DNA of 64,000 nt, taken from positions 1-64,000 of the IMG/VR virus record IMGVR_UViG_3300046490_000065; one strand, written 5' to 3'. Shown in pieces: positions 3,977 through 35,318 of this stretch. The stretch's first letter is position 1. Every line of letters begins with the position of its first letter. Made by a program: the position numbers and the translations under genes. The notes beneath the pieces were generated by a model, which did not search any database, was not told where the DNA came from, and saw nothing but the letters and a program-made list of their open reading frames with translations. This DNA is from a virus (Duplodnaviria; Caudoviricetes).

Positions 3977-4020
3977 TATTTCTTATTTATCGCATAATAG
4001 GAAATAATAGTCAAGAGGTT
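3976..4020 (-). promoter_or_regulatory. leftward promoter-like element with overlapping AT-rich inverted repeat
   Basis: Minus strand reads AACCTCTTGACT, identical to the 12-mers at about 21200 and 40363; imperfect IR TTATTTCTTATTTAT-CGC-ATAATAGGAAATAA lies directly before ATG 3976; no clean -10 at 17 bp. Confidence 0.55.
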
Positions 4021-4341
4021 TCTTGAAATATTTTCTACCTTATATATAGGGCCGGATGGGGTTCAATCCTGTTTCCGGCACCCGTCGTCCCGGCACCCCT
4101 ACCCCCTGGGCACTGTCCTACAGCTACGCGCGAGACAGTGCCGACCGCTACGCGCGAACTGTCGCGCACACACATGCGAGACACACGTGCCTCCCCACTG
4201 TCCCGCACACGCTCGCAGGACGTTGCTGAATCCGCCGAAAACGCACCAAAATGCCCGCATTCGCAAAGTGCTGAAAACGCGGCAGTTAGCGAAATAACTT
4301 GCATTGCCCGCCAGGGTGCCGCAGTATTGTGCTGCAAGCAA

Positions 4342-4990
4342 GTGGCGGACAGGAACCGCCGCCTAGGGAAAGGCCGAAAGGCGCTGGTGAGCAGTAGGGA
4401 AAGTATCCCCGAACCAATCAGCCGATAGGCGGAGGATGGAAGCTGATAGTTTGCGGAGTAAAGCCCACACAAGTCCTGGATTCCCCACTGCGGGGATGAA
4501 GCGGAGAGAACGGCAAGACTAACGGCGATGGTTCTGGCAATGAGCTAAGGATCTGGGCGTAGGGTCTGGAAGCATTGACAACTGAATACCGATGGACCTG
4601 GAGAAAACCTGCGGCACACACCGTAGGGGTAATGACCACTGGCCAAACGGAGCCTGAGCGGACTAGCGAACTGAATGATCGGGTAGCTGTTAGGGCCGGC
4701 AGAGTAGAGCATGGACGGCCAAGAGACATGGCGTAGACTGCCGGTACTGGAGATAGAATCTGATCGCGGGCTGGATAGAGCACCACTGATCGTAACCCAG
4801 GTGAAGGAGATGGGCTGATAACCCATGCCGGTCCAATGTTGGACGGGCGAAAGGGATCGAGCAATGAATTGAATGGCTTGCGGGGAGTACGGGTGGAGCA
4901 CGGCTATGCCGAGGAAGCACATCCGACACTCCCCGCATGACTACCAGACGGCTGGAGAGACATACTCCAGTCGCCCGGTGGCCATAGGCC
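4342..4990 (+). ncRNA. candidate large structured non-coding RNA or long leader
   Basis: No credible ORF; purine-rich; many stems (GTGGCGG/CCGCCGC, CCGCCTA/TAGGCGG, CCTGCGG/CCGTAGG, CCGGCAG/CTGCCGG, TGCGGGGAGT/ACTCCCCGCA, GGCTGGAG/CTCCAGTC) and a GCC-GAAA-GGC tetraloop. Confidence 0.5.
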
Positions 4991-5006
4991 AACAAGGAGA
5001 ACTACA

Positions 5007-5420
5007 ATGGCAGCTAACGTGATGTCCCTGAACTATCTGCGCCCTGGCTTCGCGGTCTTAACCCCGATGCCTACTCCCACCGTGGAGACGCCCAAACCCG
5101 TTGAGGTGAAGGCCAAGACGAAGACCGCTCCCAAGTCCGTCCGTAATTGGCTGGCCGAAGCCGAGAACGCTATCAGTCATGCGATGGAACTGTCCAAGGA
5201 TCAGCGGTTTAACGCCGACCTGACTGCGGCATGGGGTGCCGTGCTCAAGGCCCAGAACACCGTCCTGCGGGCTGAGAATGGCACACTCCCGCTGGTCAAG
5301 TCCACGGGGATCGCTTGCGAGTTCTGCGGGAAGGATCTGACTGCGGCCGAGATCCAGGCCCAGACCGAAGCTGGCGGAGAGATCGAAGCCATGTGCGATG
5401 CTTGCGCCGAGGCGGTGTAG
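5007..5420 (+). CDS. hypothetical protein with C-terminal Zn finger
   Basis: AAGGAG SD; CEFC...CDAC. Confidence 0.75.
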   Translation: MAANVMSLNYLRPGFAVLTPMPTPTVETPKPVEVKAKTKTAPKSVRNWLAEAENAISHAMELSKDQRFNADLTAAWGAVLKAQNTVLRAENGTLPLVKSTGIACEFCGKDLTAAEIQAQTEAGGEIEAMCDACAEAV

Positions 5421-17608: not shown

Positions 17609-17882
17609 GACCTACCGTTACCGCGTCACCCAGACCCTAGACATCGAGATCGGCAAGGCCGACCCTGTTAAGGCGGCTGAACTGGCCAGAAAGATCCAAC
17701 TGGATCCGCTGACCGAGGCCCGCTTCGCAGTGGAGATGCAGGGACCGTGCCCTAATTGCCACTGTTACGCTGTTCACCGGACACGCTGTAGCATTGCCAA
17801 GAAGCAGGGATGTGCCGCCGTTGACCTATCTACCAACGTCACCGTCACGGTCGAGTATAAGGACACCCCCGATGCAGGTTGA
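17601..17882 (+). CDS. hypothetical Cys/His protein
   Basis: CPNC...HRTRC. Confidence 0.55.
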   Translation: MAKTYRYRVTQTLDIEIGKADPVKAAELARKIQLDPLTEARFAVEMQGPCPNCHCYAVHRTRCSIAKKQGCAAVDLSTNVTVTVEYKDTPDAG

Positions 17883-18657
17883 CGCCCGCACCGAAGTGAA
17901 GCGCCTTTCGGCCATGATCTCCGGCATGGCTTACAAGCACAGTAGTTGGCAGGTGTTCTCGGACTTTGTGGAGGCCGCCGCGCTCTCCATCAGCAATGCA
18001 GTGGACCTTCCGCAGTATGAGAAGCGGGAGGCCCGCTACATGGAACTCATCAAGCGCTATGACGCCAAGGAACTGGCAATCTTCCCACAGATGTTGGCCG
18101 AACTCACCATGTCACTAGAGAACGAGATGGCCGACATTATGGGCCGGACGTACCACGAACTGGAGCTACACAACAAGTGGGCCGGGCAGTACTTCACTCC
18201 GTACGAGATCTGCCGCATGATGGCTAAGATGAACCTCGTGGACGGAGGTCTACAGGAGCGTATCGAACGTCGTGGTTTCATCACGCTCCAGGAACCCGCT
18301 TGCGGCTCCGGTGCCATGGTGATCGCGTTCGCTCAGGAGATGAAGGATGCTGGCTTCAACTATCAGCAACAATTGCACGTAACGGCCATGGACATCGACG
18401 CTAAGTGCTGTCACATGGCCTACCTGCAACTCTCCCTGCTTCACATTCCCGCCGTCATCATCCACGGGAATACTCTCAGCCTGGAGGAATACGGCCGCTG
18501 GTACACGCCTGCCCACATCATGGGTGGATGGGGCCACCGGCTTAACCATCCCGAGATCGAGATCCCGCCGGCCGAAACTTCGGTGGATGAATCCTGGGAC
18601 TTTTTGAACGAGTGCCTGGACGAACCTACTACGGCATGTGCTTCCAAGTTTTCCTAA
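17872..18657 (+). CDS. N6-adenine DNA methyltransferase-like protein lacking a visible NPPF/DPPY motif
   Basis: GQYFTPYEI, EPACGSGAM, DID, HGNTLS. Confidence 0.8.
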   Translation: MQVDARTEVKRLSAMISGMAYKHSSWQVFSDFVEAAALSISNAVDLPQYEKREARYMELIKRYDAKELAIFPQMLAELTMSLENEMADIMGRTYHELELHNKWAGQYFTPYEICRMMAKMNLVDGGLQERIERRGFITLQEPACGSGAMVIAFAQEMKDAGFNYQQQLHVTAMDIDAKCCHMAYLQLSLLHIPAVIIHGNTLSLEEYGRWYTPAHIMGGWGHRLNHPEIEIPPAETSVDESWDFLNECLDEPTTACASKFS

Positions 18658-27076: not shown

Positions 27077-27433
27077 ATGGGCTTCCGCGACCGAAGCTCT
27101 GCCGGCCGCTCGTCGATCGTGCCTTTCGTCCCCGGTGAAGATTCCGGGGACCGGCACGACCGGAGGCTCTCCGCCAATCTGTGTGATGAGAACGACGCGC
27201 GGGCCGCCGCTAAGGCGATCGGGTTGGTGCTGAAGATTGCTAACGACGGCCATCACTGGATGTTCACCAGCCCAGGGTTTGTTGCCGACTGGTGGCCGTC
27301 ATCCGCCAAACTGGTGTTCAACAAGGAGTTCAGAAGAGGCGTTCACTGCCATGACTGGCAGCAGGCGCTACAAGAGATTGAGAAGCGACTGATCGCGTCC
27401 AACGTTGGACGCAAGGAGACTCCCTGTGGATAG
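27077..27433 (+). CDS. hypothetical protein
   Basis: NDGHHW...DWWPSSAK. Confidence 0.6.
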   Translation: MGFRDRSSAGRSSIVPFVPGEDSGDRHDRRLSANLCDENDARAAAKAIGLVLKIANDGHHWMFTSPGFVADWWPSSAKLVFNKEFRRGVHCHDWQQALQEIEKRLIASNVGRKETPCG

Positions 27434-27671: not shown

Positions 27672-28435
27672 CCTGGAAGTCACAACTGGACATCGGCCGC
27701 GTGTTTGAACTGCGATCCAGAAGCACGAAATACCCGCCACCGTGCGGCTTGATCTTGAACCTACCCGCGCCTGGAAGAACCTACGTTGACCGTTTCATGG
27801 TTGCGGTGGACGGATTAGGCTGTATCGGTGACGGTCTCTATCGGCAAAGCCACAACCCAGACATCTACGTCGGTGGCATACGCCCCGAAGAATTCACCAG
27901 CCGACGCATCGCGCGGCGCCGCCCTGATCTGGAGCGGTTCGATGCGGATGACATTGCCCTGATCCGCTACGGACATAATCTCGATTTTGATGGCACCATC
28001 CACTCCTACTCGATGCCCAGCATCCCGCTCACGGCCCTCGCTGAGTGGACGGTATTCTGGACACCGCCATACACAGACGGTTTCCTGTACTTTAGGCCAA
28101 ACGAGCGCGAGCGCAAAGCGATGGCGGGCGCATGGCACTTCAGCCATCACGGCGGGCCGAAGCACCTTGGATACAACTATGGCCACGTTGTCGCTACTCG
28201 GAGCACTGGAGCGCGGCTGGAGCGTGTTCGCCGGATCGTGCTCCGCTATTTGTCCGACATGATCGAAACGGCGGTGCATGTGGTCCGCTATACGGACGAA
28301 CACGGGCGGACCTGCGTAACCACCGAGTTCGAGGGCGAGTGCGCTCCGTTCGGAGACGGGCGCACAACGATCTACCCAGATGCGAAGGATGGAGAGTACT
28401 CGATGTGCTGTGGCCCTCGAAAGGAGCGAACCTGA
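27668..28435 (+). CDS. hypothetical protein
   Basis: GGAGG SD, ATGA overlap. Confidence 0.65.
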   Translation: MTWKSQLDIGRVFELRSRSTKYPPPCGLILNLPAPGRTYVDRFMVAVDGLGCIGDGLYRQSHNPDIYVGGIRPEEFTSRRIARRRPDLERFDADDIALIRYGHNLDFDGTIHSYSMPSIPLTALAEWTVFWTPPYTDGFLYFRPNERERKAMAGAWHFSHHGGPKHLGYNYGHVVATRSTGARLERVRRIVLRYLSDMIETAVHVVRYTDEHGRTCVTTEFEGECAPFGDGRTTIYPDAKDGEYSMCCGPRKERT

Positions 28436-30264
28436 TGTTCCCCTCCCTTTTCTTCTGCGTAGACAAGAAGCATTCTTTTGACCTTTCCGAATGCCTGCGC
28501 TCCAACGGCATCCGCGTCTATCCCCTCACCGAGGACACCCCACCGGATCAGCGCAAGCGGTTCGTGCGGCTGTTTAAGGAGGGGGAGATAGATGGCTTGG
28601 CTTCATGTGGCGTGATTGATGAAGGCTTCGACGCCCCTAACGCAGTGGGGGGTTTTCACTGCGCCCCAACTAAGTCGGGGCTCCGCTACCGGCAGAGGGC
28701 AGGTAGGATCTTGCGGCCGTACCCAGCGCCGCAAGGAGAGCGCCTCTATCAGAAGGCCGCTCTCCACGGCATCTGGAATCATCTGAAACAGGGGGTCATC
28801 AACCAGCTTGTTGTGATGCCGACCGGCACGGGTAAGACCCGAATGGCTGCCCAAGTACCCAAGGTGATCAAGCACTGGAGGGAGAAGGCGGGGAAGGCCC
28901 GGCGCGGCCGTCTTCTGTTTCTCGTCCACCGGGAGGAACTGGCGCTGCAAACCGCCGATACCTTCCGCGAGCACACTGACATGACAGTGGGAGTGGAGAA
29001 GGCTGGATCCTACGCTGGTGATGCTGACGTCGTAGTGGGTAGCGTGCAGACCCTTGGCCCGGCCAAGTACGAAGACCTAGGGGGCGGCGAGGGGAGGTGG
29101 GAGTACAACTCCCGGCTGGCCTCTCTGCGGCCTGAGGACTTCGACTGCATCATAACCGACGAGGCCCATCACTTCAAGGGCAAGTTTTATAACCAGATAC
29201 TCCGGCGCATGCACGCGCTCAAGGGGGAACCAGACCGAGACCCGGACATCCTCAGCCTATTCATCACGGCGACTCCTAACCGTGCGGACAACGTTGGTAT
29301 GGAGGCGGTCTGCGATGCCCTTGTCTACGAATATGGGATCGTACAGGCGACGAAGGACGGCTACTTGGCGCCGCTCCACGCCTTCCGCTGCGAAACTACT
29401 GTGGACCTATCCGAACTGAAGACCCGCATGGGGGACTTGGAGCCAGAGAAACTATCCAAATTGGTCAATATCCCCGAGAGAAATATGCTGGTCGCCCGCG
29501 AGTACCTTCGGATACGGGATATGATCGCTCCGGACTTCGCGTCCAACGTTGGACCAGTCAAACCGTACTGTGTGCTGGTCGATTTCGTAGACGCGACCGG
29601 CCGCCATTCACTCATCTCCGCCCCGCAACTGTACGGCCTCCGTGAAAAGTTCGACCCGAAGGGTGCCAACGTCTTAGAGCAGGCGGCGGAGATCGACTCT
29701 ATCCAGGCAGCCAACCCCGGCCTGGACCTCCGCGAGGCCACCGACTTGGAAGATGCCAAGCGCCGGGCGGATGCCTACAAGACCTCCCTGCAAAAGCTGG
29801 ACCTCCTCAATCCATCGATCCCGAACGCCCTGCGCCACCTGTCCAAGATGACCTGGGTGGCGGAAGCGGCCGGCTCCTACCGACTGGGACTCATGGATGG
29901 CTCCATGCTCACCGTGCGGGAGGATGCCCTGGGTGGGTTCGAGGTGAACCGCCATGTGCGCGGGGTGAAGACGAAGCTCTACGCAGCCAAAGACCTGCCC
30001 CAGGCGATCAGCTTGGCCGAGAAGGAGATCCCGCCCAGTGACAAGCGGGTGCTGGCGGCCGATGCGGGGTGGAGGACAGAACCACCCACAGACAAGCAGT
30101 GCAGTAGGTTAATCGTAATCGATCGGCACTACAACCACCAGTTCCATGGGAACATGAAGGCTCTGTACACCTACGTTCTTGCCCGATACACCGCTGGCGA
30201 CCCTTTATTCTCCAGGGGAGGAATTGCCGACAGGATGAATCGAATCGACGCCAAGCGAAGGTAA
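28435..30264 (+). CDS. SF2 (ResIII/Irc3-like) DEAH helicase with motifs IV-VI moved to the N-terminus
   Basis: LFFC, DEGFDAP and QRAGRILR precede PTGTGKT, HREEL, DEAHH and TATP. Confidence 0.88.
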   Translation: MFPSLFFCVDKKHSFDLSECLRSNGIRVYPLTEDTPPDQRKRFVRLFKEGEIDGLASCGVIDEGFDAPNAVGGFHCAPTKSGLRYRQRAGRILRPYPAPQGERLYQKAALHGIWNHLKQGVINQLVVMPTGTGKTRMAAQVPKVIKHWREKAGKARRGRLLFLVHREELALQTADTFREHTDMTVGVEKAGSYAGDADVVVGSVQTLGPAKYEDLGGGEGRWEYNSRLASLRPEDFDCIITDEAHHFKGKFYNQILRRMHALKGEPDRDPDILSLFITATPNRADNVGMEAVCDALVYEYGIVQATKDGYLAPLHAFRCETTVDLSELKTRMGDLEPEKLSKLVNIPERNMLVAREYLRIRDMIAPDFASNVGPVKPYCVLVDFVDATGRHSLISAPQLYGLREKFDPKGANVLEQAAEIDSIQAANPGLDLREATDLEDAKRRADAYKTSLQKLDLLNPSIPNALRHLSKMTWVAEAAGSYRLGLMDGSMLTVREDALGGFEVNRHVRGVKTKLYAAKDLPQAISLAEKEIPPSDKRVLAADAGWRTEPPTDKQCSRLIVIDRHYNHQFHGNMKALYTYVLARYTAGDPLFSRGGIADRMNRIDAKRR

Positions 30265-34463: not shown

Positions 34464-35318
34464 ATGGCGGAACTACCCGATTCCAAAGCAAGGGCATCCT
34501 GCGACCTCGATGGGGTGATCACGGTGGGACCGGGCAAGACTCCCTACGACTTTGCCCCCGTGCGAACTGGTGCCCGCGATTTCCTCCGCACCCTCCACGA
34601 GCGCTACGAAGAAGTCATCATTCACACGGCCCGGCCGGTCGATGCGGCCAAGAACTACCTGCGGCAGAACGGTTTGTTGAAGTACGTGGCGGACGTCACC
34701 AACACGAAGCTCCCATCCAAGGTCTACATCGACGACAGGGCGGTGGCGTTCACTGGGGACTTCGAAAAGACCCTGGAAGAGGTCGAGGACTTCCGGCCGT
34801 ACTGGGCAAAGTCCGCGTCCGACGTTGGACTAGATGATGCCTCCACCCAGTTCGACCTGCCGCCGGACCTTGCGGCCAAGGTGATCTCCATGGGGAAGAA
34901 TGTCCCAGACTCTATGCTCCACGGTAAGGGTCGTGAGGAGCACCCTCACATTACCGTGCTCTATGGGATCGAGGACGAGACGCCGGACAAGTTGGCCGCC
35001 GCTCTCAAAAACTTCGGCCGCGTCCGAGCCCGGCTTGGCGCCACGAGCTTCTTCCGGGTTCAAAAGAAGGGGTTCGACGTCGTGAAGCTAACCGTCGCGT
35101 CAGAGGACTTGAAGCGGTTGCGCAAAGCGGTGGAAGCGGCGTCTAAGTTCCATACGGATTTCCCGGACTACGTGCCCCACGCGACGATCGCTTATACGAA
35201 GCTAGGCAGCGGAGAGAAATTCTCTGGAGATCGCACGTTGGCCGGCGAGGAATGCGTCTTCGACGCCCTTACGTTCTACGGATCGAATGGAGAACGGACG
35301 AGGATACTCCTGACCTAG
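34464..35318 (+). CDS. HAD-family phosphatase fused to 2H phosphoesterase (Acb1/T4 57B-like)
   Basis: DLDGVI, HTAR and YIDDRA (HAD); HITVLYG and DFPDYVPHATIAY (two HxT motifs). Confidence 0.82.
   Translation: MAELPDSKARASCDLDGVITVGPGKTPYDFAPVRTGARDFLRTLHERYEEVIIHTARPVDAAKNYLRQNGLLKYVADVTNTKLPSKVYIDDRAVAFTGDFEKTLEEVEDFRPYWAKSASDVGLDDASTQFDLPPDLAAKVISMGKNVPDSMLHGKGREEHPHITVLYGIEDETPDKLAAALKNFGRVRARLGATSFFRVQKKGFDVVKLTVASEDLKRLRKAVEAASKFHTDFPDYVPHATIAYTKLGSGEKFSGDRTLAGEECVFDALTFYGSNGERTRILLT

Follow-up and report, generated by a model that had tools for sequence, protein, structure and literature searches.

A segment-swapped SF2 helicase in a viral genome, with a palindromic DNA site that appears to be maintained in its new junction loop

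In superfamily 2 (SF2) helicases, it is taken for granted that RecA1 precedes RecA2. The helicase gene P0001, at positions 28435-30264 on the + strand of a stretch of DNA from a soil phage, does not follow this order, and the locus raises two questions: is a helicase with its motor domains in the opposite order a genuine protein, and did the palindromic DNA site that lies in one of its new joints, at 29541, have a part in making it? The stretch, referred to here as the window, comprises the first 64 kb of a 94,628-bp IMG/VR virus record that is rated complete by CheckV. In this report, we find that P0001 belongs to a natural group of segment-swapped helicases, that the same swap was fixed at least twice, and that the palindrome is probably a DNA site accommodated by the new loop. 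We consider it likely that this explanation, taken as a whole, is correct; it includes the prediction that P0001 works in phage replication or recombination, as an SF2 helicase of the ResIII, RadD or "IRC3"-annotated kind. A literature search yielded no description of an SF2 helicase with RecA2 ahead of RecA1.

P0001 is 609 amino acids long and is encoded by an uninterrupted frame of 609 codons. Its start codon, an ATG, shares bases with the stop codon of the upstream open reading frame (ORF), the sequence AAAGGAG lies 8 nt to the 5' side of this ATG, and all 24 homologues in our alignment (A1) start within a few residues of the same methionine. Promoter and terminator scans around the gene gave signals at chance level only, with no internal start signal evident 3' of the junction loop described below. 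Both RecA-like halves of the SF2 core are detected above the curated Pfam thresholds: Helicase_C (PF00271) at residues 5-94 (E 1.1e-9; 39 bits, cut-off 23.5) and ResIII (PF04851) at residues 103-283 (E 3.8e-25; 89.1 bits, cut-off 22.5). Helicase_C thus precedes ResIII, and the standard order of RecA1 (motifs I-III) before RecA2 (motifs IV-VI) does not hold. Sequence matches in the PDB are also split, an HsdR fragment aligning to residues 92-336 and the C-terminal helicase halves of SauUSI, XPB and RadD to residues 4-106. The PHROG 16 family ("DNA helicase") matches the protein with an E value of 1.3e-58.

When P0001 was compared by BLASTP with 120 homologues, two patterns emerged: the homologue was either colinear with it or aligned in three pieces. 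In the latter case, that of the normal-order relatives, residues 3-100 of P0001 align to about 260-358, residues 103-360 to 4-256, and residues 375-609 to 373-607; we term the corresponding segments blocks A, B and C. Block A (residues 1-97; 28435-28725, +), delimited by Pfam, BLASTP and AlphaFold2, holds RecA2 strands 1-4 with motifs IV (LFFCVD), V (DEGFDAP) and VI (YRQRAGRILR). A new tether, residues 98-102 of RPYPAPQGERLYQ (28726-28740, +; alignment A1), joins motif VI straight to the Q motif, and its consensus there, RPxPAPQGxRxYQ, is nearly invariant. Block B (residues 103-360; 28741-29514, +), placed by Pfam, BLASTP and VIA-align, holds the RecA1 motifs Q, I (PTGTGKT), Ia, II (DEAHH) and III (TATP) and, within the same coordinates and on the same strand, the helical linker (DGYLAP...PERNMLVAREYL). 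There follows a new B/C junction loop (residues 361-375; 29515-29559, +; columns ~385-410 of A1), whose length and sequence vary among homologues. In it lies the palindrome GTCCAACGTTGGAC, located by motif scan at 29541-29554 and read as (A)SNVG(P). Block C (residues 376-609; 29560-30264, +), placed by BLASTP, comprises the last RecA2 strand (KPYCVLVDFVD, strand 379-387) and a C-terminal domain that has no Pfam match.

These alignments indicate that the change is a swap of adjacent segments, from B-A-C to A-B-C. A circular permutation of the whole protein was considered and rejected: block C remains C-terminal, and A-B-C is not a rotation of B-A-C. Because the last RecA2 strand stays with block C, RecA2 is discontinuous in the swapped chain. 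The ends and joints of the two forms differ. Normal-order proteins begin M.LRPYQ, and permuted ones M(F/I)PSLFF. In the normal order, B passes into A through ...ERNELIARKY[LEIxPPG]PSIFFT and A into C through ...GRVLRxxP[SPEELAEMxAxGExPxxV]KPxAxVxDF; in the permuted order, A passes into B through RPYPAPQG-xRxYQ and B into C through the variable loop before KPxAxVVDF. Relative to the normal-order proteins, P0001 thus has its A and B segments exchanged, has lost the 18-residue loop after motif VI (SPEELAEM...), and has gained the PAPQG tether and the new B/C loop. The original prediction for this locus had put motifs IV-VI ahead of motifs I-III, had assigned the displaced block to the space between the linker and the K..C.V.DF strand, and had seen a perfect palindrome at that junction. 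The Pfam order, the three-block map and the position of the site, in codons 369-374 and within the stretch (361-374) that separates block B from block C and that the alignments leave out, respectively bear out these statements.

The window derives from a metagenome-assembled record, and its unusual gene might accordingly be an assembly artefact or a decaying pseudogene. We regard this as scarcely credible. The identical P0001 protein is found on 4 contigs, and about 28 of the BLASTP homologues are colinear with it over 98-100% of its length, at 39-85% identity. Misassembly had been named in the original prediction as what could overturn it, and the identical copies, together with some 29 colinear homologues from ENA, JGI, NCBI and Logan assemblies, argue strongly against it. 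Nor does the gene show decay: its 609-codon frame is whole, and motifs Q, I, II, III, IV, V and VI are all present and conserved down to 39% identity. Invariant across the 24 homologues of A1 are Q106; T130, G131, G133, K134 and T135; D242 and E243; and T280, as well as F6 and F7; D66; and Q87, G90, R91 and R94. Further, both new joints carry novel linker residues rather than abutted normal sequence, and no rotation of a B-A-C gene would yield the A-B-C order.

Structure prediction, which had also been put forward as a check on the reordering, returned the alternation expected for block A. AlphaFold2, run on P0001 with the 24-sequence alignment, gave a model with a mean predicted local distance difference test score (pLDDT) of 86.9 and a predicted template-modelling score of 0.67. 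Block A is modelled as strands at 4-7, 28-31, 54-57 and 72-75 and helices at 11-23, 37-48 and 82-90, with pLDDT values of 76-96; in the model, this succession is the pattern expected of RecA2. At the junction, a helix (347-368) is followed by coil (369-378) and then by strand 379-387. VIA-align superposes residues 100-403 of the model on RadD residues 3-367 (Z 19.6, 250 residues, root-mean-square deviation 4.5), and XPB, Hef and HsdR match the same part at Z 16-18; the superposed range extends from RecA1 as far as the place of the final RecA2 strand in RadD. We propose the following path for the chain. Residues 1-97 would supply RecA2 strands 1-4 and motifs IV-VI, and the short, proline-rich tether would run from block A into the Q motif and RecA1 with its motifs I-III. 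A loop of about 10 residues after the linker helices would then return the chain to the last RecA2 strand, 379-387, with the C-terminal domain next. The ATP site between the RecA halves would presumably be unchanged, with RecA2 discontinuous and the chain crossing to or from RecA1 twice instead of once.

How widespread is this arrangement, and how often did it arise? The permuted form is rare: in a profile search of 1.84 billion cluster representatives, which recovered 8,100 family members at E<=1e-30, only 6 of the 150 best were colinear with the permuted profile. In a tree of 192 sequences, built on re-ordered blocks, the 29 proteins of the window's lineage (lineage 1) are monophyletic with a support of 0.945, and their sister group consists of the normal-order proteins P0012, P0020, P0021 and P0025. 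The sixth colinear protein, P0218, falls elsewhere: it is sister to the normal-order P0254 (support 0.964) among helicases like that of Tunturiibacter phage Tunturi_3. P0218 and two proteins colinear with it, P0266 (on a 67-kb contig; 78% identity) and P0267 (68%), make up lineage 2, and all other proteins near P0218 are of normal order. Because the P0218 group nests among normal-order helicases, apart from lineage 1, the same swap, with equivalent cut points, has been fixed at least twice independently. The segment swap is thus tolerated well enough for two independent fixations in the family. Against the order usually taken as fixed, a natural clade and a second, independent one have put most of RecA2 first and left its last strand behind, with the catalytic motifs conserved.

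Exchange between the two forms has left its own trace. In the normal-order proteins P0012 and P0028, block C nests within the window's subclade at 64-80% identity, whereas the core is only 43-54% identical; recombination near the B/C boundary has therefore occurred. The gap indicates that these genes are probable mosaics, in which a normal-order and a permuted gene recombined immediately 3' of the junction. Scans of IMG/VR with alignment A1, P0001, P0022, P0025 or P0021 returned only distant normal-order relatives or nothing, and P0010 and P0028 were not found in genome contigs. A pattern for the permuted A/B joint, which makes no use of the palindrome, had no match in viral or genome contigs and identified 8 loci in metagenome contigs, 5 of which span the junction loop.

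The closest known proteins are the normal-order PHROG 16 helicases with ResIII and Helicase_C domains, often auto-named "ATP-dependent helicase IRC3", of which P0012, P0021, P0025 and gp68 of Tunturi_3 (PP885686) are examples. They consist of the same three blocks, the nearest at 41-64% identity, and they share with P0001 the motifs, the C-terminal domain, the signatures of the linker and the strand (PERNxL...; K..a.v.DF.D) and a replication-type neighbourhood. Among solved structures, E. coli RadD (PDB 8h5y, 7r7j and 6jde) and XPB/Rad25 (for example 7egb and 5tnu) best match RecA1, the linker and the final RecA2 strand of the P0001 model, with Z 19.6 for RadD and 17-18.5 for XPB. In these solved helicases, unlike in P0001, RecA1 comes before RecA2. 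At an identity of only 15-26%, the likeness is one of core fold, and we do not claim membership of either family.

Natural reordering is known from other P-loop NTPases, the circularly permuted GTPases of the YlqF/YjeQ type. These enzymes and P0001 alike have their nucleotide-binding motifs reordered, with the fold and catalytic residues kept. P0001 differs in that adjacent internal segments change places, the C-terminal domain and the final RecA2 strand keep theirs, and one domain becomes discontinuous. The further idea in the original prediction, that block-swapped NTPases might help to evade NTPase-sensing defences, is purely speculative. For structural biology and protein engineering, the swapped helicases offer a natural test of chain connectivity in a two-lobe motor, and the swap pinpoints cut sites that evolution has used twice. 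It also counsels caution in domain-order annotation and in pipelines based on hidden Markov models, which would call swapped genes fragments or fusions.

The second question, that of the palindrome, is best approached from its other copies. With at most 1 mismatch, palindromes of the GTCCAACGTTGGAC type number 20 in the window, against 0 expected. Of these, 19 fit GTCCAAYRTTGGAC, among them the copy at 29541, which is perfect and has CG at its centre. The whole record holds 25 copies of GTCCAAYRTTGGAC, against 0 in a reversed control, and the variation lies nearly all in the central CG, which becomes TG or CA. The flanks of the copies are unrelated, and the palindrome is therefore not a mobile element. 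A rough map of the ORFs places about 16 of 26 copies at the boundaries of genes. About 10 lie deep inside ORFs, and 8 of these are read in the S-N-[VI]-G frame, on either strand, which suggests that the palindrome may be placed where a small, flexible peptide is tolerated. Members of this genome-wide set of 26 include those at 34817, 42054, 44346 and 45552 of the window and at 73450, 80870 and 87775 of the genome. The array presumably consists of protein-binding sites.

A precedent for such an array is found in the "stoperators" of mycobacteriophage L5, dispersed operators that are read by one DNA-binding protein. Like the stoperators, the GTCCAAYRTTGGAC array is a single short motif scattered over a mobile genome and lying mainly between genes, here in about 25 copies. 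Unlike the stoperators, some sites of the GTCCAAYRTTGGAC array lie in coding loops, and a helicase linker has retained one through deep divergence. The L5 sites also have one known reader, whereas here the ORF that we considered as a ParB-type candidate reader, at 91,928-92,959 of the genome (1929-2960, +, of L209), has no Pfam match even at an E value of 10.

The array and the helicase occur apart as well as together. Clusters of 3-7 perfect copies of GTCCAACGTTGGAC are present in many other IMG/VR contigs (L094-L173; for example L111, L119, L135, L127 and L162), and more than 100 such perfect-palindrome stretches, at the least, exist in that database. Ten IMG/VR records with perfect-palindrome arrays held no P0001 homologue; conversely, 80 IMG/VR loci with distant normal-order homologues held no palindrome in 1.15 Mb, and the 97.6 kb of Tunturi_3 held no copy. 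The array and the helicase family are therefore not generally linked. Near the permuted helicases themselves, site positions recur. A copy lies between the KTSC-domain gene and the helicase (27397-27410; motif scan), and equivalent upstream copies stand just after the KTSC gene in L087 (at 1342) and L089 (at 2815); in L086, an upstream copy (at 1449) occupies the same stretch before the helicase. Positional conservation of array sites thus seems, from these sequences, to be general in this group of phages. The segments 27393-27410 and 29537-29554 of the window share 18 nt (TCGC and the palindrome), whereas the other copies have no common flanks.

Within P0001, the palindrome opens with the last base of codon 369 and closes with the first of codon 374; the DNA of the loop reads xxG TCC AAC GTT GGA Cxx and encodes A-S-N-V-G-P. 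With 26 copies in 94.6 kb, we estimate the probability that one would land by chance in a loop of about 45 nt at roughly 0.015. Since the junction site is conserved in homologues, the matter of a chance landing is irrelevant. No part of the protein varies more in A1 than the B/C loop. Nonetheless, 14 proteins of lineage 1 have SN[VI]G or SKIG there, and about 5 others have VQ[C/Y/D/G]W[T/I] (VQCWT, VQYWT, VQDWT or VQGWI). VQ[C/Y]WT would be coded by GTC CAA (TGT/TAT) TGG ACN, the same 14-mer in another frame; YRT can encode only four residues, C and Y among them.

Loop DNA was retrieved with the palindrome-independent A/B-joint pattern. The site is G TCC AAC GTT GGA C (SNVG) in L089, whose protein is 73% identical to P0001; G TCC AAT GTT GGA C (SNVG) in L090 and G TCC AAT ATT GGA C (SNIG) in L092, both at 43% identity; and GTC CAA GGT TGG ATA (VQGWI, in the other frame and with 2 mismatches) in L086, at about 36-49% identity. 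L087, at 54% identity, has no site at the loop. Given the peptide, the codons TCC, RTT and GGA have a chance of about 0.003-0.005 per lineage by codon usage, and they were seen in all 4 of the 4 sequences checked. The 14th base of the palindrome requires a C as the first base of the next codon. Of the 13 SN[VI]G loops, 12 continue with a residue that a C-initial codon could encode (P, Q, R, L or H), and the SKIG loop does so too. Both large subclades of lineage 1 contain the site. Between the close relatives P0019 and P0018, it shifts by several nucleotides and in frame within the loop, a pattern more like selective turnover than like a scar fixed in place. Because rare codons and two reading frames are found in homologues down to about 43% identity, we conclude that selection probably acts on the DNA of the loop and not on its peptide, and that an unconstrained loop accommodates the site.

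One could argue instead that selection favours the S-N-V-G peptide itself, for instance because the permuted fold requires a turn there, and that its identity with the palindrome is secondary. SN[VI]G is, after all, the commonest reading of the loop, and most coding copies in other genes use the same frame. Yet relatives with VQCWT, VQYWT or VQGWI at the same place have the same DNA in another frame, the rare codons are fixed in the four sequences checked for them in DNA, the residue that follows the motif is nearly always one that a C-initial codon allows, and about a third of the lineage 1 clade and all of lineage 2 lack the peptide. The two-frame evidence largely refutes this alternative, in our reading of the sequences, and we consider it very improbable. 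The first suggestion of the original prediction, that the new loop merely tolerates the site, is supported, and is strengthened by the two-frame, rare-codon conservation in diverged homologues. Whether permuted homologues carry the motif at the junction, a check that it had proposed, has a divided answer: the SN[VI]G/SKIG and VQxW proteins do, and L087 and, judging by their peptides, about a third of the clade and lineage 2 do not.

Two minor resemblances deserve mention. At 29288-29297 of the window, the conserved TPNRADNVG of block B is coded with ACAACGTTGG, which shares the palindrome core AACGTTGG; we judge this coincidental. A 25-nt likeness (D2, 72%) of the loop to this ADNVG segment was considered and set aside as chance plus the shared AACGTTGG core.

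Did the palindrome, then, make the swap? It is conceivable that array sites are recombination breakpoints, that block A was excised, deleted or transposed through one of them in the lineage 1 ancestor, and that the junction copy is the scar. The site does fall exactly in the B/C gap, an upstream copy stands at an equivalent position in four loci, the closest normal-order proteins have no palindrome-like peptide at their junctions (a comparison at the peptide level), and the mosaic block C of P0012 and P0028 attests to recombination near the boundary. However, P0012 recombined at a point downstream of the loop, where no site was left. The A/B joint and the start codon, the other places where new sequence was joined, have no copy or remnant, even at 3 mismatches. 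The mobility of the site in position and frame between P0019 and P0018 is likewise at odds with a scar, loops of unrelated genes also carry the motif, usually in the S-N-V-G frame, and phages with the array and without the helicase exist, as do phages with a helicase of this family and without the array. Lineage 2 has the same swap, and its loop (HATTDTEE-KTDCLIMDVAD) has no palindrome-like peptide; the palindrome is therefore not required for the rearrangement. We thus regard such a history as improbable. The compound claim that the array sites are recombination-active and that one of them created the swap of lineage 1 seems to us slightly more doubtful still, and the suggestion in the original prediction that the palindrome took part in the rearrangement is unsupported. 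Were it nevertheless true, dispersed DNA-binding sites would double as breakpoints that reshuffle protein segments, and the junction site would be both the scar of a rearrangement and a cis element still in use.

The explanation that we favour, a genuine segment swap whose new loop houses a selected DNA site, has points that weigh against it. The pairing of strand 379-387 with block A is inferred from secondary structure and the ranges of the structural alignments. Lineage 2 was seen as proteins, so that the absence of the site there is deduced from peptides. The presence of the site in both large subclades of lineage 1 means that it is probably early, and it may date from the origin of the swap. 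Finally, the ParB reading of the candidate ORF was not confirmed by Pfam. In this last respect, the junction site could be of practical use, as a handle for finding the reader of the palindrome array. More generally, the junction loop would represent a clean case of a cis-acting DNA site within coding sequence, one 14-mer being kept in two frames and with disfavoured codons.

The helicase has as neighbours an N6 DNA methylase, a beta clamp, a radical-SAM protein and a KTSC-domain protein, and this neighbourhood is, judging by its predicted products, a replication and DNA-metabolism module. The methylase gene lies at 17794-18657 of the window. The radical-SAM protein (PF04055; 24487-25059, +) is 66% identical to its counterpart in L086 and may be part of a DNA- or nucleotide-modification pathway. 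Directly before the helicase lies P0002 (27515-28435, +), an ORF of 306 amino acids that is translationally coupled to it by an ATGA overlap; it has no Pfam or PHROG match. P0002 is absent from the syntenic loci L086, L087 and L089, in which the helicase starts only 150-450 bp after the upstream palindrome copy, and it looks like an insertion.

Inteins are a further feature of the family. In several permuted homologues, namely P0023, P0030 and those of L086 (at 2304-2695) and L089 (at 3994-5279), inteins (PF07591/PF14890) interrupt motif II (DEAH), and the normal-order P0020 has an intein-like insert in motif VI. None of these inserts is at a swap boundary. Many family members of 900-1000 amino acids probably carry inteins as well.

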